Source: a virus (taxonomy: Duplodnaviria; Heunggongvirae; Uroviricota; Caudoviricetes). Taken from it: a stretch of DNA of 64,000 bases. Positions 4,824 through 54,006 of the stretch are shown here, piece by piece. Under the pieces are notes generated by a model that did not search any database, had not been told where the DNA came from, and saw nothing but the letters and a program-made list of their open reading frames with translations. How positions within the stretch are numbered: the stretch's first letter is position 1; every line of letters begins with the position of its first letter. The translations under genes and the position numbers were made by a program. The stretch lies in the IMG/VR virus record IMGVR_UViG_2595698945_000001. One strand, given 5' to 3'.

Positions 4824-5246
4824 ATGCTCAACTATCATGACAAAACACGTACTATGCAAACGATCCGCACGAACACTGCGGTAGTCGATAGCTTCCCTAT
4901 GCGTTTTCACAACAGTGAAGACTCAGTGGAAGTGCGCCGCATGTTATGTCGCGAAACAGCTGACCGCCAGCACTTCATTGTCACATTCAAAAGTGATGTT
5001 ACTCGCGCAGAGAACATCTCCAACAGCACCTCAACTGTAACTCCGTTGGCAGAGGTCGTTGTGCGCAATAACAAATTGCGCTTTGTCCTCAAGCCGCAAG
5101 AACAGTACCCCGAAATCGTTGATGTTAAAGAATCCATTGTTCCAAAAATTGAGAAAGCCGTTGTACAATTCATGAAGAATAAGTTCAACGACCTCAAGGA
5201 AAGCGTTTTACCAGAACGCAAAAAAGAACAATGGCACCTTCTTTAA
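4824..5246 (+). CDS. Hypothetical protein
   Basis: ORF with RBS GGTGGA. No recognisable motifs. Confidence 0.4.
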   Translation: MLNYHDKTRTMQTIRTNTAVVDSFPMRFHNSEDSVEVRRMLCRETADRQHFIVTFKSDVTRAENISNSTSTVTPLAEVVVRNNKLRFVLKPQEQYPEIVDVKESIVPKIEKAVVQFMKNKFNDLKESVLPERKKEQWHLL

Positions 5247-5980
5247 TTGATGAACGCTACAACAAGCAGTTGAACAAAATGCCGCTCTCTATGGGCGGCT
5301 ATACTATTTTAGAGACCTTTCATTTCGCGACACCAGAAGGCGATGTTGTTCGTCTGGTGGAGATGCGTGCCGATAAAGGCGAGTTCGACAACTTTCTCGT
5401 TGTGTATCTTTTGCCCTCCTATAACTCAGATTATCAATTTGACGAAATCACGCGGGTTATGGATGACGAGGGGATGAGTGCGTTTGAGGCTGCCGAACAC
5501 ATCATCAAAATTGAGATCGTGGATGCGACTCTTAGCCCAGAAGAGCTGAAGGTTGTGGGTCGATTTGCCTATAACGATTTTCCGTTTATTGGCGTCGATG
5601 GGAATGAATACCTCGGTAAGCAAATCAAAGGCGCTTATCTCGAACCGCCTTTTGACTCAGCCCGCATAGGCTCTACAGCATATCGCTTCATACTGGACAA
5701 ATACCGCCACCTCGTTTGCGACAATTTGCAAACCATTTTGGGTGCGTCCATGTGGTCAGGTACTATGCGGAGATATGGCGAGGTTATGATCTACGATACC
5801 GTGAAAAAATGTTGTCTTGACCAGCTCGGCGACAAGGCAAAGGGTTCTACCACCGGCTTCCTGCCGTGGGATATTGGCAGTTTGCCTTTAAGTCGCGTAA
5901 CAGACGAGTGGGGAGACCGCGAGCTGCGACTTGATAAAGGCTCTTGTACGCACATCGTCAACATCATCTCTCTCCCATAA
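5231..5980 (+). CDS. Hypothetical protein
   Basis: 249-aa ORF, followed by a terminator. Confidence 0.45.
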   Translation: MAPSLIDERYNKQLNKMPLSMGGYTILETFHFATPEGDVVRLVEMRADKGEFDNFLVVYLLPSYNSDYQFDEITRVMDDEGMSAFEAAEHIIKIEIVDATLSPEELKVVGRFAYNDFPFIGVDGNEYLGKQIKGAYLEPPFDSARIGSTAYRFILDKYRHLVCDNLQTILGASMWSGTMRRYGEVMIYDTVKKCCLDQLGDKAKGSTTGFLPWDIGSLPLSRVTDEWGDRELRLDKGSCTHIVNIISLP

Positions 5981-6002
5981 ACCCGCTACGGCGGGTTTTT
6001 TG
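5980..6002 (+). terminator. Rho-independent terminator
   Basis: aacccgctacggcgggtttttt. Confidence 0.7.
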
Positions 6003-6134
6003 ATCCCACGCTCCACATTCACCAAGTACCTATCATTTAACCTTTACACCGCAGCCGTAGGCATTTAGGCTATATCACATATAAGAAAACAAGTTGTTTC
6101 ATACGACAATAATTCACGCAAAGGGAACTCACCA

Positions 6135-6800
6135 ATGACCAAGATCATTGTGGTTGGCGGCACAAAAGGCGGCCCAGGCAAATCTACCGTTGCCCAGCAA
6201 ATTGCGGTATGCCTCAAAGTTAAAAAGAAAAAGAAGGTTCATGTAACCGATATTGATATTCAGCGCACAACTACGAGCTGGTGTGAAGATCGTCGCCAGA
6301 ATGACGATCTTGAGCTGATTCCCTTCGCATATGTCCAGGACGACATCGTCAAACATCTTAAATCGCTTCAGGGGCGCACCGATTATGTAGTGGTGGATGC
6401 TGGTGGCTTTGACTCCGAAATTCAGCGTCTGGCGATGCTAATGGCTGACGTGATTATCATCCCGCTGCGCCCTAAACGTCGTGATTTGAAATCCCTGCGC
6501 GATATCGACCCGATTATCGACAACGTTCGCAACGTGAACGAGACTGTGAAGATCCGCGCGGTAGTGAACCAGTGTCCGTCACTGCCTTCCCAGGTGTCAC
6601 GTATTCTGGCGGCGAAAGAAATTGTAGAGACATTCGGCATCGAGGCTGCGCCGGTTAACTTGTACAACCGTAACGTTTATGACGACGCGGAAGAGGCTGG
6701 TCGTTCTATCTTTGAAATGACTGGCGCCGAACGCGATAAGAAGGCAGAAGCCGAGTTCGAAGAGTTTGTAGATTACATCATGAGTCTGGAGGAAGAATAA
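6135..6800 (+). CDS. parA: ParA partition ATPase (type Ib, small ParA)
   Basis: Deviant Walker A GGTKGGPGKST. 221 aa. Followed by a small RHH protein. Confidence 0.8.
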   Translation: MTKIIVVGGTKGGPGKSTVAQQIAVCLKVKKKKKVHVTDIDIQRTTTSWCEDRRQNDDLELIPFAYVQDDIVKHLKSLQGRTDYVVVDAGGFDSEIQRLAMLMADVIIIPLRPKRRDLKSLRDIDPIIDNVRNVNETVKIRAVVNQCPSLPSQVSRILAAKEIVETFGIEAAPVNLYNRNVYDDAEEAGRSIFEMTGAERDKKAEAEFEEFVDYIMSLEEE

Positions 6801-7159
6801 TGTCCATGAGAATGGGAGACCTTGCAAAGCGCAAAGAACCGGAAGAGCCGGTAAAAAGCAGCACCCCAATGCGCCAGCCAGTCAGACCGCAGGGGCGTCC
6901 GACTCGTGGGAAAGAGAAGATTAAGAGCCGCACAATGTCGCTGGAAGACGAGTACTTCGATCTGCTGGAGATGATGAAGTTCATCCCTCGTTTCGAGAAG
7001 TTCACCCGTTCTGACGTGATTCGTGCAGCCATTTTCCATCTGGCAGAGAAGTCGCCGCAGGAAATCGAGGACATCGTGAAACTGAACGAGGCGATCACCG
7101 CTGCCGACGTCACGATGCGCACCGATGAAATCAAACGCGAGTTGATGAAGAAAGGTTGA
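6800..7159 (+). CDS. ParG-like ribbon-helix-helix centromere-binding protein
   Basis: Overlapping start. Basic N-terminal tail plus the RHH-like segment KSRTMSLEDEYFDLLE. Partner of the small ParA. Confidence 0.55.
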   Translation: MSMRMGDLAKRKEPEEPVKSSTPMRQPVRPQGRPTRGKEKIKSRTMSLEDEYFDLLEMMKFIPRFEKFTRSDVIRAAIFHLAEKSPQEIEDIVKLNEAITAADVTMRTDEIKRELMKKG

Positions 7160-7160
7160 T

Positions 7161-7805
7161 ATGGCTAAATTTTTGTCTAGGCATTTAGGTTGGTATATTG
7201 GCTTAGCGTTGGCCATATTAGCCGCAATTGTGTTTGGCAAAGTTATCGGCTTGCTAGGAATTTCAAACCAAGGGGTTATTTCTGTTGCTGGTTCAATGAT
7301 AGGGATGATATGTAGTGGATTATACCGCAACACTTTAAAATATATTAAATCCGAAGAATACAGATTAAAAATACAAGAGTATAAAGAGAAACGTGACGAA
7401 AGTGTCAAGAAAGAGCGAGAGGCATTAAAGAGGAAGACAATCGTCGAACTTTATCTCTTGAATGAAAAGAAAACCTTCATCAAGGTTAAGCTTCTCTCTG
7501 TGATGATGATATTTTTTGGCGCAGCGCTGAGCTACTTCTTCGTCTATAGCTCTATCGTTACCATCACTGGAATTGTAGCCTTTGTTTTACTGGAGCTAAA
7601 AGAGAGAGTTTTGGCTTATCGTATAGCTAAAGGCTTTTTCGGTAATAATAGTACTGAAGCTATCCAGTTACTTAAATTTATTGAGACCAATATCGACAAC
7701 ATCGATACTGGTAGCAGTGGTGGCAAACGTAAGATATTGAATGACCCTGTTTTAGAAGAAATCCCAAATGAGAATTTGGGAAAGGGGGCTTTGGATGCCA
7801 GATAA
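7161..7805 (+). CDS. Membrane protein (4 predicted TM), low-GC cargo
   Basis: Hydrophobic helices at both ends with a Lys/Glu-rich coiled segment between. AT-rich codon usage unlike the flanking genes. Confidence 0.45.
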   Translation: MAKFLSRHLGWYIGLALAILAAIVFGKVIGLLGISNQGVISVAGSMIGMICSGLYRNTLKYIKSEEYRLKIQEYKEKRDESVKKEREALKRKTIVELYLLNEKKTFIKVKLLSVMMIFFGAALSYFFVYSSIVTITGIVAFVLLELKERVLAYRIAKGFFGNNSTEAIQLLKFIETNIDNIDTGSSGGKRKILNDPVLEEIPNENLGKGALDAR

Positions 7806-8205
7806 AGATCTGACAAGCAGATATCTCAACAGGGCAATGGATATTTTGCTATTAGGCTATCCACTTAGAACTGTTTTTGGGTCACTTATCGGTGCTCTAC
7901 TGTGGGTGGTGCTTCATATTTTTACACCATTCTTGCTTACCAAAGGCTTTGTTGTTGACTGGATATATAACGCTGGTTGTTTTGTTGTTGGCGTTTTGAT
8001 CATGAATACCAAAACAATCATTGATGTGTTCAATGGTGATGCAATCAGCGAGAAGTTTGGCAGTTCTTTGAGGCATATTGATAAGCGTCTAGATTTGTCG
8101 AATGAACAAAAACGATATTTAATTAACAAGTTATTGAGTGATCATATAGCGAACCTTACTGACAACCAAGTCAAGGAAGTTGAACAGAGAGTTACGGATA
8201 AGTAA
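7795..8205 (+). CDS. Membrane protein, low-GC cargo
   Basis: ATG at 7795 after a G-rich RBS. 2-3 TM helices. Overlaps the upstream gene end. Confidence 0.4.
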   Translation: MPDKDLTSRYLNRAMDILLLGYPLRTVFGSLIGALLWVVLHIFTPFLLTKGFVVDWIYNAGCFVVGVLIMNTKTIIDVFNGDAISEKFGSSLRHIDKRLDLSNEQKRYLINKLLSDHIANLTDNQVKEVEQRVTDK

Positions 8206-8314
8206 ATTTAACCAATGCTATTAGAACAGGTTGTTAATATTTTTAATGGCCTGTTTGTTGGTTAAGATAATTACGTGTGCCATTCTGTGTTGCAATATAA
8301 AATAGTGGATAAAA

Positions 8315-9073
8315 ATGCTATACAAATACGTAGGGCATGAAGACCCAAACGAATTAATCAAAATTCTCAAATTCTTCATCGAAGATGGAACCATCCGAGC
8401 CACCAGACCACACGACTTCAATGACCCTGCCGAATTCAAAGCAAAATTTAGTTTCGACGCCACGATACCGGAGAAGCGTGTCCGATATCATGAGATGTGG
8501 CCTGGCAAAAGCGACGATGACGGTGAGAACTGGTTAAGAGGGCGAACCAAAAACGCCGAAGAGTTTGACGCCTATATGCTGCGCGGAAATCTGCTTTTGA
8601 ATACCGGTGTGATATGCCTCACCAGAACTGACACTAATTACCTGATGTGGTCGCATTACGCCAGCTCCCACTCTGGATTTTGCATAGGGTTTGATGACGC
8701 TATTGTGGAAGCGCTGGATGACCAACACACAGCGTTAAACGGTGATGTGGAGTACGTGAAATCGCCGCCTGAAGTGAACTTCTATACCGCTGATGTGTAC
8801 GACATTGTCAGAGCCATCTTTCTGCACAAGGGTGAGAGCTGGAAGTACGAAGAAGAGTTCCGGATTATCTCTGAGCTGCCAGGGCTTAAGAAGTTCGACA
8901 CCTCGCTCATCAAAGAGATTTCTATCGGATGCAAACCCTATCCAGAGCTGGAAAGTTTTGCCCGTGAACTGCTGGACAGCAATCTGGCCGTGTACAAAAT
9001 GCTTTGCCCGACTGACTCGTACCAACTGAAGCGTGTGGAGCTGGACAAGAACCTTTCTTTTCAAGGTTACTAG
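8315..9073 (+). CDS. DUF2971-family protein
   Basis: Signature MWSHYASSHSGFCIGF typical of DUF2971. Low-GC. Confidence 0.5.
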   Translation: MLYKYVGHEDPNELIKILKFFIEDGTIRATRPHDFNDPAEFKAKFSFDATIPEKRVRYHEMWPGKSDDDGENWLRGRTKNAEEFDAYMLRGNLLLNTGVICLTRTDTNYLMWSHYASSHSGFCIGFDDAIVEALDDQHTALNGDVEYVKSPPEVNFYTADVYDIVRAIFLHKGESWKYEEEFRIISELPGLKKFDTSLIKEISIGCKPYPELESFARELLDSNLAVYKMLCPTDSYQLKRVELDKNLSFQGY

Positions 9074-9092
9074 TTCTGGCAGCTTCAATTCA

Positions 9093-9159
9093 GAACCTGC
9101 TTCTGTATATATAAATACTAAGTTACTTATTATTATTTATACGGAAGCAGGTCTTTTTC
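9093..9159 (+). repeat. Hairpin element R1 (stem acctgcttc/gaagcaggt with a 40-nt AT-rich loop carrying a Motif A variant, then a T-run)
   Basis: A near-identical element recurs at 53937-54006. Confidence 0.6.
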
Positions 9160-9268
9160 TATGCCAACTTCCGAGACACATTCCCTTCCGTTTCCACTTC
9201 CAAAAAACATCTCCAGTCGCTATGATTCGCCCATTATGTAAGTAAGTGACTACCTATCGGCGGAGCAC

Positions 9269-9994
9269 ATGAGCCAGATCTTCTTTAACACTATTAACAA
9301 CGACCAGTACGACTTCATGACCGAGTGGGACACCACAGTCATGGACAAGTGGGTGGCCGAGAATATTGGGCTGTCACGCTGCAAGGATGAGGCTGAGTTG
9401 TTCGAGACAAAGTGGTTTGATTACCGCGACATGCACCCGCTTATGGCCACATGCCTTTTCACTGAGGCATACAAACGCCAGTACTCATACATCATGCTGT
9501 CGCATGGCCGCGAACACTATGAAACGGCCCCATTCACAACCGGTTTGAAACGTGTGCCGTATCAGGAGCTGTCAACGGCGAACAAAACGTCTCTCTGGAA
9601 AGCACGCCAGTTTGCCGACCAGTACTGCTGCTCTTATGACTACTTCATTTCTACCGTTCTTTCCGCAGCTGCACGCCGTCTGTGGGGCAAATTACCGCGC
9701 CCCCAGCATCTCTGGCAGCCCGAGCTGATCGAGATATTCGAAGAGAAGTTAGCCAAACGCGCTGTAACCCGTCTGGATGACTCTCTGGTGAGTTTTAAGC
9801 ATCTGGGAGACATGCAGCACGACCCGATTCAAGAACGCTATTTTGAGTGGGTTCTGGAGCGTCTGCGTGGCATTACCCGAGACAAGCGCGTCCGCATCAT
9901 CTTCTCCGCTGTCTGGTTGATGGAAATCGTGCCTGAGCGTGTGATTTACGCGCACTTCCCGGAAGAACTGGAAGAAGCACGGCGATTCTGTTGA
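9269..9994 (+). CDS. Hypothetical protein (upstream of the helicase; possible helicase loader)
   Basis: 241-aa ORF. No motif recognised. Confidence 0.45.
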   Translation: MSQIFFNTINNDQYDFMTEWDTTVMDKWVAENIGLSRCKDEAELFETKWFDYRDMHPLMATCLFTEAYKRQYSYIMLSHGREHYETAPFTTGLKRVPYQELSTANKTSLWKARQFADQYCCSYDYFISTVLSAAARRLWGKLPRPQHLWQPELIEIFEEKLAKRAVTRLDDSLVSFKHLGDMQHDPIQERYFEWVLERLRGITRDKRVRIIFSAVWLMEIVPERVIYAHFPEELEEARRFC

Positions 9995-18398: not shown

Positions 18399-20744
18399 AT
18401 GTCCAAAGCCATGACCAGATCTGTGCTGAAAGAGGTACAGGACTTCCGCGACTGCGTAAAACGTGTTGTAGCGATGCTTTCAGGCAAGCAGATACCTGTT
18501 GCAGAGCGAGGCAATGAAGCATATGTCCGCTACAACCGGCGCGGCGAACCAGTGCTGGTAAACATCCCATCTATACCGGACGACGCATCACCAACCCTCA
18601 TGAACGCAGTACGTGGTTTTCTCGACCATGAGGTAGCCCATATCCTCTTTACTGATCCGACAGTCGCAATGAAGATGCGCGAGAGAGGAAAGGCTCCGTC
18701 TACCGGGCTTTGGAACGCGCTGGAAGACGTTTTTATTGAACGCAGAATGGGACAGGTATTCAACGGAACCCGTCGCAATTTGCTGGCCACACAGAACCTG
18801 GTGATCGACAAATACTTCAGAGGCAAAGTGTCAGAAGCGGTTTCAATCTGCCACGGCGACCAGCGCGAACTATTCCTGAAATTCTTCCTTTGCCCGGTCG
18901 TCCGCGCCTGGGATGGCCAAAGCCCTTTCATCGACTTTATGGAAGAACACTGGCACCTCATCGAGAAGCCGGTTGCCTTGCTCAAGGAGCACTGCATAGA
19001 CGTGGCCGTTCGCAATATGTCCAACACTGAGGACTGCGTGAAGGTCGCTGCTGCTATCGCGCAAATCATGCAGGATATGAAAGACAAGCCAGAGGGTAAA
19101 TTACCAGAGCTTAAATCATCTGCAAAAAAGCCGTCGAAGAGCAAAGACGAGTCTGAGGAAACACCAGAGTCAGGCGACGATCCGTCTCATGGTGAGTCTG
19201 CGCCAAAGCGTACCAAAGGCGAAGACGACGACAAGGAAGAGCAAGAAGATGATGTCTCAGAAGAGGAGGAGTCTGGGGATTCTGATTTGCCTGAATCAGT
19301 AGATAAGGACTTACCTATACACGATAAAGAGATTAGTGATATAGAAAGTAAATATACAGAAACAGGCGAAGATGAGTCGGTAGAGGCACCAGAATCCGAT
19401 GATGCCGGCATGGACTCAGGTGATTCTGATGACACTGGCGCTCCAACGCCTGGCGATGGCATTCGCGAAGATGCCGATGACTCCGATGGTTATGGCTCTG
19501 GCGCCGCTGGTGATGGGGATGGCGCTGACGGGGAAGACCCCGATGCTGGTCGTGGGGAGTCCGAAGAAGGCGAAAAAGAGGATGACACCGCCGATAACGT
19601 AGAAGGCGAAGGCAAAGAAAATGAGGATGGCGCTGAAGTGCCAGAAGACAGTGAGTCAGGCTTTGTTCCTGCGCCGGATGAAATGACTTTGGAGGACGCA
19701 CTCAAGGCGCTCGACGAGATGGAAGACGGAACCGGTGAAATGACCGAAGACGCACTGTCGGCCACCATCAGTAAGGAGCTTATGAGCACCTCGCTTTCTG
19801 AGTATCGCCCATACGATCGTTCATACGACTTTATCGGGCTAATTGATGAGGCTGAAGAGCATGTTAAGCGCACCAGAAAGACATTTGGCGCAATCCCAAT
19901 GCACTCACCGGTCGATCGCTACCGCATGGTTCCGGAAGGCAGAAAACTCTTTGAACTGAAAATCGAAAAACATCTGTCAGCAGGCGTTTCTTCGACTCTG
20001 GCCAAAGACCTGGAGCGAGCTATCGCCAGCCGCAACCGAGTTCAGTTTATCCCTGGTCAGAGACGTGGGCGGATACATGGCGCGAACCTGTATCGTCTGG
20101 CAATGAACGACGACCGTGTGTTCCGCAAGAAAGAAGACCACAGAGCGGTGAACGCGTGCGTCCAGCAGGTGATCGACTTATCCGGCTCAATGGGTGGCAG
20201 GAAGATTCAACTGGCACTCGCCAGCGCCTACACCATTGCGGATGCCCTAGATCGTATCAATGTGCCTAACATCATCACCGGCTTTACCACATTTGGTAGC
20301 CCTGATTATGAAATCATGTCGAAGCGCGGATTTACACGTTTCGAGGCGCTCATGCTGCCCATTATCAAAAACTGGAATGAGAAAGCTAACTCTCCAGAGA
20401 TCCGCGCCCGCATGGGCTGCGTGTGTGAGACGTTCCCCCTGCTCAATAACGTCGATGGTGAGAGCGTCGCGCAGCTGGCGACTCTGTTTGCAGGGCGAAT
20501 GGAGGACAAGAAGATCATGCTGGTTATGAGCGACGGGGCGCCATGTGCTGCAGGCGATGGGTTCCATCAGCATTTACGAACCGTCACCAAAGAAATTGAG
20601 ACGTTGAGTGACATCGATCTGATGGCTATCGGGATTCTGACCGACGAGCCACGACGTTTCTACAAAAATTACGCGCTGGTAAACAGCGTAGAAGAGTTAG
20701 GGCCGTCAGTTGTCACTGAGCTATCTCGTATCATTCTTGGGTAA
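18399..20744 (+). CDS. CobT-like protein: N-terminal CobT-type domain, ~200-aa poly-acidic linker, C-terminal vWA (MIDAS) domain
   Basis: ATG at 18399 after RBS AAGGAA. D/E-rich low-complexity region. vWA MIDAS motif VIDLSGSMGG. Confidence 0.65.
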   Translation: MSKAMTRSVLKEVQDFRDCVKRVVAMLSGKQIPVAERGNEAYVRYNRRGEPVLVNIPSIPDDASPTLMNAVRGFLDHEVAHILFTDPTVAMKMRERGKAPSTGLWNALEDVFIERRMGQVFNGTRRNLLATQNLVIDKYFRGKVSEAVSICHGDQRELFLKFFLCPVVRAWDGQSPFIDFMEEHWHLIEKPVALLKEHCIDVAVRNMSNTEDCVKVAAAIAQIMQDMKDKPEGKLPELKSSAKKPSKSKDESEETPESGDDPSHGESAPKRTKGEDDDKEEQEDDVSEEEESGDSDLPESVDKDLPIHDKEISDIESKYTETGEDESVEAPESDDAGMDSGDSDDTGAPTPGDGIREDADDSDGYGSGAAGDGDGADGEDPDAGRGESEEGEKEDDTADNVEGEGKENEDGAEVPEDSESGFVPAPDEMTLEDALKALDEMEDGTGEMTEDALSATISKELMSTSLSEYRPYDRSYDFIGLIDEAEEHVKRTRKTFGAIPMHSPVDRYRMVPEGRKLFELKIEKHLSAGVSSTLAKDLERAIASRNRVQFIPGQRRGRIHGANLYRLAMNDDRVFRKKEDHRAVNACVQQVIDLSGSMGGRKIQLALASAYTIADALDRINVPNIITGFTTFGSPDYEIMSKRGFTRFEALMLPIIKNWNEKANSPEIRARMGCVCETFPLLNNVDGESVAQLATLFAGRMEDKKIMLVMSDGAPCAAGDGFHQHLRTVTKEIETLSDIDLMAIGILTDEPRRFYKNYALVNSVEELGPSVVTELSRIILG

Positions 20745-53936: not shown

Positions 53937-54006
53937 GAGAACCTGCTTCCGTATATATAAATAACTAAGTACTAATTATTAATATATACAGACGCAGGCT
54001 TTTTAA
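53937..54006 (+). repeat. Hairpin element R2 (second copy of the 9093-9159 element)
   Basis: gagaacctgcttccgtatatataaataactaagtactaattattaatatatacagacgcaggcttttt. Confidence 0.6.

Follow-up and report, generated by a model that had tools for sequence, protein, structure and literature searches.

Two accessory cassettes, a membrane-protein pair and a DUF2971 gene, side by side in a cargo slot of the phage-plasmid SSU5

The present analysis concerns a stretch of 64,000 nucleotides of viral DNA (IMG/VR record IMGVR_UViG_2595698945_000001; hereafter the window), which is the Salmonella phage-plasmid SSU5: between positions 6000 and 10100 it is 100% identical to Salmonella phage SSU5 (JQ965645/NC_018843), the SSU5 position being the window position plus 24362. 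Its subject is a block at 7161-9073, which consists of two independent accessory cassettes stacked one after the other, and not of one three-gene system. The first cassette is formed by the genes of two small membrane proteins, here called mem1 and mem2, and the second by a single gene for a DUF2971 protein; their RefSeq names are SSU5_035, SSU5_036, and SSU5_037. An earlier note, written from the sequence of the window alone, had placed three open reading frames (ORFs) here, between parA/parG-like genes and the replication genes, and the ORF check finds them there, all on the same strand, with the partition genes on their left and gene 038, a DnaB-like helicase gene, and a primase gene on their right (table 1). 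The same note had read the three genes as a single module, in which a DUF2971 sensor would work together with membrane effectors; this part of its interpretation is not supported by the distribution of the genes.

Separate distribution and composition of the two cassettes

A megablast search of the region against PLSDB returned 741 related plasmids, mostly non-mobilizable, which belong to Klebsiella, Escherichia, Enterobacter, Salmonella, and Citrobacter and measure, among the matches listed, about 105-125 kb; coverage of the query reaches 80% in only nine of them. Among the close relatives, the commonest type (97.6% identical over 72% of the query) is without exactly the two membrane genes. 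A DUF2971 allele 98% identical to that of SSU5 lies alone, directly 3' of the parG-like gene, in more than 100 plasmids, and the gene order in pCFSAN076210 is parA, parG-like gene, DUF2971 gene, 038. Alignment of the junction in plasmids of the latter type reveals that the homology with SSU5 stops just past the stop codon of the parG-like gene and returns at the first codons of the DUF2971 gene, the spacer in between being 45 nt long and containing a GC hairpin, as against about 1.15 kb in SSU5.

The membrane genes, for their part, were each found by tblastn in 74 plasmids, at 38-100% identity and with identical counts per taxon and per identity band. Together with parA, the parG-like gene, and 038, and without the DUF2971 gene, they are present in Klebsiella pneumoniae pIncFIB_DHQP1400954, Escherichia coli pWP4-S18-ESBL-07_2, Salmonella pSA20094620.2, and a plasmid of Enterobacter ludwigii. 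Every pair-only locus inspected has the pair alone in the slot between the flanking genes (10 of the 81 loci surveyed below, four of which are these annotated plasmids), and in the contexts inspected outside SSU5-like elements the pair likewise travels without DUF2971. Both cassettes occur together only in the SSU5 allele group, namely in about 10 of the 74 pair-bearing plasmids, three IMG/VR contigs, phage pJN2-26, and Buttiauxella gaviniae, the last being the one locus, of SSU5 type, that a profile search of genome contigs with the mem1 alignment returned. Since the same DUF2971 allele stands alone in more than 100 plasmids and the pair stands alone elsewhere, the three genes are not one unit. 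How, then, did SSU5 come to carry both sets in a row? Our answer is that one cassette was inserted beside the other via recombination in the conserved flanks, and that their stacking does not reflect functional coupling.

Base composition divides the block at the same place. The earlier note had described all of it as AT-rich, which is accurate for 7161-8314, a part comprising mem1 (GC 0.378), mem2 (0.384), and the intergenic stretch that follows (0.294) and ranking in the lowest 0.4% of equal-sized stretches of the window, but not for the DUF2971 gene, which has a GC content of 0.480 (0.581 at third codon positions, GC3) versus 0.506 for the whole window. This gene is near in composition to its neighbors parA (GC 0.497, GC3 0.554) and the ORF at 5231, both of which have GC of 0.48-0.50 and GC3 of 0.54-0.55, and lies below the parG-like, 038, dnaB, and primase genes (GC 0.53-0.55, GC3 0.63-0.68). 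Hence, with its low GC confined to 7161-8314 and the DUF2971 gene close to its neighbors, the block has two compositional parts and not one.

The slot between the parG-like gene and the border hairpin

To survey the slot, 80 IMG/VR loci were fetched via the conserved gene 038, and the parG-like gene, 038, and the three cargo proteins were placed on them by tblastn; the DNA intervening in the 81 loci that have both flanks (seven had been picked by hand) was then clustered, giving 25 DNA clusters and about ten types of cargo. The flanks are conserved: the parG-like gene is 90-99% identical over the 81 loci regardless of cargo, gene 038 is 88-100% identical across 87 loci, and parA is 98% identical in relatives with different cargo. 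Between them, 23 loci carry a minus-strand gene for a 245-residue GIY-YIG protein (Pfam LEM-3_GIY-YIG; PADLOC PD-T4-3, E=1.9e-23), and 16 a minus-strand gene for a protein of 351-357 residues, either alone (n=12) or with a DUF2971 gene (n=4). DUF2971 is the sole cargo in 13 loci, with alleles of 98%, 51%, and 26% identity, one of which is on the opposite strand; two more alleles, of 43% and 38% identity, are found only alongside the gene for the 351-357-residue protein, so that the family enters the slot as five alleles of 26-98% identity, one inverted. The membrane pair is present alone in ten loci and with DUF2971 in four, and the remaining loci hold KAP-family P-loop NTPases of 567-574 residues (n=7; PDC-S49, E=2e-21), a 395-residue PD-T7-5 homolog (n=2; E=6e-138), a lipoprotein (n=1), or an empty site of 201-208 bp (n=5).

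The contention that the block is accessory cargo is borne out by its absence or replacement in most relatives, as is the defense-type setting attributed to it, for in these relatives the slot holds known anti-phage genes (PD-T4-3-like, PD-T7-5-like, and PDC-S49). With its conserved flanks, alternative cargos, known defense genes, and empty sites, the slot from the parG-like gene to the hairpin is a hotspot for defense-type cargo of mobile genetic elements, and an anti-phage role of the block is plausible. A 2025 preprint reports PD-T4-3, PD-T7-5, and other systems in SSU5-group elements and contains no hotspot map; the partition-side hotspot of SSU5 appears to be unmapped in the literature searched. 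Two systems known from SSU5-group elements of Salmonella, DS-33 and DS-37, are distinct from the genes discussed here, the former being a two-gene GNAT system and the latter a single, unrelated gene.

The right border of the slot is the same in every configuration, the empty one included: a hairpin, ACCTGCTTCTGTATA...TATACGGAAGCAGGT, followed by a T-run. The earlier note had the block end at this element; the inverted repeat does lie just downstream of the DUF2971 gene, but it is kept even in empty slots and therefore belongs to the backbone, not to the cargo. At the left border, most cargos open with their own short GC hairpin just 3' of the parG-like stop codon, while pair alleles of SSU5 type start 1-5 nt past this stop without any hairpin (the mem1 ATG of SSU5 lies 1 nt past it). 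Because there is no terminator between the parG-like gene and the pair, the latter probably shares a transcript with the partition operon in SSU5 and would be expressed in the plasmid-prophage state. A scan of 5900-9400 for promoter and terminator consensus sequences performed no better than on shuffled sequences.

Table 1. Features in and around the cargo slot of SSU5 (window coordinates)
Feature	Position	Strand	Profile matches and remarks
parA-type partition ATPase, conserved backbone left of slot	6135-6800	+	Pfam MipZ/AAA_31/CbiA/ParA; PHROG 164 (ParA-like)
parG-like small gene (SSU5_034, long form); stop codon is left border of slot	6800-7159	+	PHROG 5111, 1-119 of 119
mem1 (SSU5_035, 214 aa), first gene of membrane pair	7161-7805	+	PHROG 22270, function unknown
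mem2 (SSU5_036, 136 aa), second gene of membrane pair	7795-8205	+	PHROG 17322, function unknown
AT-rich spacer (GC 0.29) between the two cassettes	8206-8314	.	Takes the place of the short terminator-like hairpin spacer of DUF2971-only relatives
DUF2971 protein (SSU5_037, 252 aa), predicted DarT-like ADP-ribosyltransferase fold	8315-9073	+	PDC-S31 match
Conserved hairpin with 20-nt arms and AT-rich loop, then T-run; right border of slot	9095-9152	.	Inverted-repeat detection; present in all slot types
Gene 038 (241 aa, unknown function), conserved backbone right of slot, followed by DnaB-like helicase and primase	9269-9994	+	PHROG 2500

Two of the gene starts deserve comment. The start of mem2 overlaps the end of mem1 by 11 nt and is most likely that at 7795, giving 136 residues, rather than the alternative at 7768, giving 145, because the former has an AAGGGGG Shine-Dalgarno sequence and coincides with the RefSeq start and with position 1 of the PHROG profile. 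RefSeq has for SSU5_034 a product of 96 residues (window 6869-7159), and an ORF of 119 residues starts at the ATG that overlaps the parA stop codon; the longer start is more likely, given the end-to-end match to PHROG 5111 and the calls of 117-118 residues in related plasmids. In Escherichia phage Cyrano, CYRAN_29 (positions 2276-2635 of our locus L003) is labelled as a putative RelE/ParE toxin and corresponds to the parG-like gene, being 93% identical to that of SSU5; the toxin annotation is probably wrong. A "hypothetical protein" in the slot of the same phage is the 51%-identical DUF2971 protein.

Other observations concern cargos and elements besides those of the block. The family of 351-357 residues (357 in locus L019, 351 in L024, also in L026 and L036), present in at least 16 of the 81 loci either alone or beside a DUF2971 gene, has no match in Pfam or PADLOC and is a further candidate for defense defined by its position. 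The lipoprotein in the slot of locus L018 is encoded by a minus-strand ORF of 225 residues, with a predicted signal peptide and an LLAGC lipobox, and recalls Cor, Llp, and similar exclusion lipoproteins that block receptors. The border hairpin recurs in full at 53942-53998, with the same arms of 14-20 nt, a similar AT-rich loop, and a T-run, and is matched in part at 19353-19366. Its arm motif is present 5 times in the window versus 0.5 expected by chance, and the repeated hairpin might be either a terminator used in common or a site for protein binding. The interval from the spanin genes to parA (window 4824-5980, SSU5_031/032; compared regions 491-1325 in locus L003, 560-1358 in L005, 324-1523 in L007, and 880-1401 in L004) is a second variable slot. 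It contains in SSU5 two ORFs without Pfam or PADLOC match, and in relatives a pair of GNAT toxin and DUF1778 antitoxin similar to KacAT (E. coli), a 399-residue HEPN-domain protein (the E. ludwigii plasmid), or a helix-hairpin-helix protein (Klebsiella).

The membrane pair and the DUF2971 protein

Both products of the pair have strong hydrophobic spans, in agreement with their earlier description as polytopic membrane proteins. Hydropathy and the secondary structure from AlphaFold2 (AF2) indicate for mem1 about four transmembrane (TM) segments, arranged in two hairpins (about 10-55 and 108-146) with a charged helix between them and a conserved cytoplasmic tail, YRIAKGFFGNNSTEAIQLLKFI...GGKRKILN, and for mem2 about two, in one hairpin (about 26-71) that precedes a helical cytoplasmic C-terminus. 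The conserved core of mem1 is made of its second TM hairpin plus K[ED]R[IV]LTYR[IV]xKG[FY]FGxNxxEAxQLxKFI...GGxR[KR]ILN, and the N-terminal half of the protein is variable in its length, in coiled-coil content, and in the number of TM segments. The predicted periplasmic loops of the pair have a few residues only, the conserved parts being cytoplasmic. Neither protein has a Pfam match above chance level, a PADLOC family at E up to 1, or an NCBIfam match; a profile search of PDB sequences gave nothing for mem1 and only chance-level matches for mem2 (best E=0.034). No homology at the level of hidden Markov models (HMMs) was found in PADLOC, Pfam, NCBIfam, or PDB between the pair and known membrane defenses such as RexAB, Kiwa, Rst_2TM_1TM_TIR, and the TM effectors of CBASS and Pycsar.

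An exhaustive profile search among 1.84 billion proteins found 85 representatives of mem2 at 50% identity, nearly all of 102-171 residues, with four of 181-204. A mem1-like gene lies immediately 5' of every mem2 homolog inspected, at distances from a 4-nt gap to a 14-nt overlap, and this includes a distant metagenomic contig. In 5,426 complete genomes of E. coli, blastn of the pair found no DNA-level match; a tblastn search with mem2 in 50,697 phage records retrieved only SSU5 and Klebsiella phage pJN2-26, and IMG/VR scans with two divergent mem2 alleles gave 0 and 2 loci. Genomic contexts were read for ten alleles. The chromosomal pair of Enterobacter-type genomes and of K. aerogenes (63% identical) is always followed by a 374-residue PD-T7-5 homolog (E=7.4e-131), at the cargo end of a satellite-like island with integrase, AlpA, Bro-N, and D5-primase in five loci of the Enterobacter-type allele and beside an insertion sequence transposase in four K. 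aerogenes loci. The pair occupies, in one P2-like prophage, the interval flanked by the gpA-like replication gene and the portal gene gpQ, a position that corresponds to the old/tin defense hotspot of P2 (Rousset 2022, PMC9122126). It is found also at the ogr end of P2-like prophages in Pantoea, between smpB and the tail-fiber end of a prophage in Providencia, inside an integrative and conjugative element (ICE) of Salmonella between topB and a DUF3577 gene, near methyltransferase-Mrr genes on a phage-like contig, and in the identical parG-like/038 slot of a distant SSU5-like element. A further pair is on contig WJKD01000072.1 (GCA_014729315.1, our L108), which was binned as "Candidatus Lokiarchaeota", beside a gene with a weak match to Por_Secre_tail, a sorting domain of type IX secretion; the contig is probably bacterial and mis-binned.

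Since a mem1-like gene precedes mem2 in all the contexts read, the pair is, to judge from these genomes, an old, mobile, and obligate two-gene cassette of accessory and defense hotspots in several classes of elements. This makes it a credible candidate for a defense of new kind, and the chances of a defensive role are, by our estimate, slightly below even. A function in lysis, as a holin, was considered and rejected: genes for holin, endolysin, and spanin are already present upstream in SSU5, and most of its relatives are without the pair.

For the second cassette, HMM searches uphold the earlier assignment of the "MWSHYASSHSGFCIGF" protein to DUF2971. It matches Pfam PF11185 over the whole profile (1-89 of 89) with 41.3 bits versus a gathering cut-off of 22 (E=4.2e-10), and residues 2-240 match PADLOC PDC-S31 (PDLC04990; E=2.1e-33), the gene being single also in the slot of pCFSAN076210-type plasmids. 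A literature search for PDC-S31 found no record. Homologs at E<=1e-5 number 174, and PF11185 is annotated in all of the 120 listed for which a precomputed Pfam annotation exists (3 of the 120 having none). In an alignment of 85 sequences, N36-D37-P38, W112-S113-H114-Y115, G121, Y147, K172, W176, Y178, E179, R183, and G205 are invariant, with Y3-K4-Y5 and E181 conserved in at least 90%. The AF2 model built on this alignment (predicted local distance difference test, pLDDT, 95.2; predicted template modelling score, pTM, 0.89) has the core fold of ADP-ribosyltransferases (ARTs) of the H-Y-E/DarT-like clade, and the tyrosine of motif II (Y115) and the ExE of motif III (E179, E181) are retained, as fits this clade. 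The protein is thus a DarT-like ART by its predicted fold. A PDB-sequence profile search with the DUF2971 alignment had no match. DUF2971 has been assigned bioinformatically to the H-Y-E clade of ARTs, with a weak motif-I histidine, a strict tyrosine, and an ExE motif (PMC12522546). Two members of the family are tied to defense: Aristaios, a single-gene DUF2971 system of Lactococcus that acts in an Abi-like manner and interferes with phage transcription (PMC11381338, PMC13064643), and DS-45, an E. coli DUF2971 clone ("2971") with phage resistance in the DefensePredictor supplements (PMC13092281). The DUF2971 gene of SSU5 is a new member of a known and partly validated family, and its protein rather probably serves in phage defense. 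A DarTG system was rejected, since there is no DarT or DarG HMM match in PADLOC and the neighbors are mem2 and gene 038, with no macrodomain gene adjacent.

Proposed explanation, alternatives, and known systems

The preferred explanation, to which we give a probability of about 0.6, is that two unrelated accessory cassettes lie side by side in a hotspot of SSU5-like elements, one encoding an exclusion or abortive complex of mem1 and mem2 and the other a stand-alone DUF2971 ART. Mem1 and mem2 would be a translationally coupled inner-membrane pair with almost no periplasmic exposure, forming a hetero-oligomeric membrane complex that in the lysogen may act as a device for phage exclusion or abortive infection; the conserved TM hairpins and the cytoplasmic tail would be its effector, and the hypervariable N-terminal, coiled-coil half of mem1 would set its specificity. 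If the pair does defend, permeabilization of the membrane and block of entry are roughly equally likely. The DUF2971 protein would be a self-contained, autoinhibited, NAD+-dependent ART released by infection, which may modify nucleic acid, as DarT does, or a core protein of host or phage, so that phage gene expression or replication stalls in an abortive or replication-blocking way. What the sequences show is the anatomy of the block, the independence of its cassettes, the hotspot, the predicted fold, and the family assignments; the anti-phage function, its trigger and targets, and the choice between membrane damage and entry block for the pair are inferred. In its stronger form the reading of the first cassette is that mem1/mem2 may constitute a previously undescribed, self-contained, two-protein inner-membrane system against phages or other mobile elements, moving between the hotspots of P2-like phages, satellite-like islands, ICEs, and SSU5-like phage-plasmids, with the variable half of mem1 determining specificity; we propose this tentatively, as nearly an even bet. 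A bolder version, in which the pair would be a modular membrane partner boosting a downstream soluble effector (DUF2971 in SSU5, PD-T7-5 in chromosomal islands), seems improbable.

Several points weigh against the two-cassette explanation as a defense. The case for the pair is one of neighborhood alone, and the hotspots of phages and plasmids also hold anti-defense genes, toxin-antitoxin pairs, and other morons; the pair is without a recognizable sensor or enzymatic domain, and the AF2 model of mem1, obtained with an 18-sequence alignment, is unreliable and could not be used for a fold search because of its pLDDT of 53.5 and pTM of 0.25. In the DUF2971 protein the motif-I histidine of H-Y-E ARTs is absent, strand 1 being LYKYV with K4 in its place, and the relation of DS-45 to the SSU5 family is weak and limited to the core (residues 98-186; hhalign E=6e-5, probability 64%). 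Finally, the surveyed loci are the closest relatives of SSU5 gene 038, and their frequencies are not population estimates.

Which other explanations could account for the same genes? That they form one abortive-infection system, with DUF2971 as the sensor and the membrane proteins as executors, would suit their adjacency on the same strand in SSU5 and about 15 close relatives, and also the islands in which the pair lies directly 5' of the soluble PD-T7-5, as if it were a generic membrane partner. Yet the 98% DUF2971 allele does without the pair in more than 100 plasmids, the pair does without DUF2971 in all ten pair-only loci of the slot and elsewhere sits next to portal, ogr, or ICE genes, the two parts differ in composition, and PDC-S31, Aristaios, and DS-45 are all single-gene entities; a three-gene system is therefore the least probable of the readings considered. 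Nearly as improbable is a role of the DUF2971 ART in the lytic program of SSU5 or in counter-defense, in the manner of T4 Alt, ModA, and ModB, instead of host protection. Some phage ARTs are well known to remodel the host RNA polymerase, and the gene is indeed phage-borne; it is, however, dispensable, being exchanged in relatives for PD-T4-3, PD-T7-5, or KAP NTPase genes, it belongs to the plasmid-maintenance region and not to a lytic operon, and its family is mostly bacterial and chromosomal, with two members having defense phenotypes.

For the pair, two alternatives have to be weighed. It may mediate superinfection exclusion without cell killing, blocking the entry of incoming DNA at the inner membrane as T4 Imm or P22 SieA do, a possibility which we consider unlikely but less so than the others. 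Small inner-membrane proteins of a prophage or plasmid, probably co-transcribed with a constitutively needed partition operon, would fit such a role, and the prophages, satellites, and ICE that bear them would gain from shutting out competitors; against this stand the periplasmic loops of a few residues, the cytoplasmic location of the conserved parts, and the absence of homology to known exclusion proteins in Pfam, PADLOC, and NCBIfam. This alternative differs from our preferred explanation in mechanism, the role being the same. The pair might otherwise be a module for plasmid addiction or stability of toxin-antitoxin type, or another moron of lysogenic conversion unrelated to phages. It abuts the partition operon in SSU5, the neighboring hotspot upstream of parA holds a GNAT toxin-antitoxin pair in relatives, and an overlapping two-gene layout is typical of toxin-antitoxin pairs; but plasmid stability is of no concern to the integrated P2-like prophages, the satellite-like islands, and the ICE in which the same cassette resides, and known toxin-antitoxin pairs do not consist, as this one does, of two membrane proteins of conserved length. 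We regard this as an improbable reading, adding that toxin-antitoxin function and defense are not mutually exclusive.

The preferred reading of two cassettes in one hotspot matters beyond SSU5. Phage-plasmids of this kind are common in clinical Klebsiella, Enterobacter, Salmonella, Shigella, and E. coli, as the 741 PLSDB plasmids matching the region illustrate, and a sharply bounded slot beside the partition operon offers a simple read-out of lineage cargo and permits the mining of new defense genes by position. It already supplies two candidates without family assignment, the membrane pair and the 351-357-residue protein. A predicted DarT-like ART free of antitoxin, in a phage of Salmonella LT2 that is genetically tractable, would be a place to address the trigger, target, and self-restraint of DUF2971 defenses.

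In comparison with known systems, the pair is a family-less candidate inside a known kind of system. Lambda RexAB, Kiwa KwaA, Rst_2TM_1TM_TIR, T4 Imm, and P22 SieA are likewise small polytopic inner-membrane proteins from prophages, found in defense hotspots; in contrast to them, both partners of the pair are membrane proteins, with no soluble sensor or enzyme and no sequence relation detected in PADLOC (E up to 1), Pfam, or NCBIfam. The DUF2971 protein shares with Aristaios (316 residues, from a Lactococcus plasmid) and DS-45 (181 residues, from E. coli) the Pfam family, the single-gene arrangement, and the lack of an antitoxin, and with Aristaios also the AF2-predicted ART fold; DS-45 differs in being without the N-terminal strand, the NDP motif, and the helical insert, and the hosts and phages of both differ from those of SSU5. 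Its likeness to PDC-S31, itself a computational candidate with no phenotype attached, consists of a nearly full-length HMM match and the single-gene architecture, while it departs from the DarT of DarTG in the replacement of the motif-I histidine by lysine and in its large helical inserts. As to the slot, the old/tin hotspot of P2 and the psu-int hotspot of P4 (Rousset et al. 2022) are similarly fixed intergenic sites between core genes, with mutually exclusive cargos that include validated defenses; unlike them, the slot of SSU5 lies in a phage-plasmid, adjoins a partition operon, and has a hairpin, not cos, as its border.

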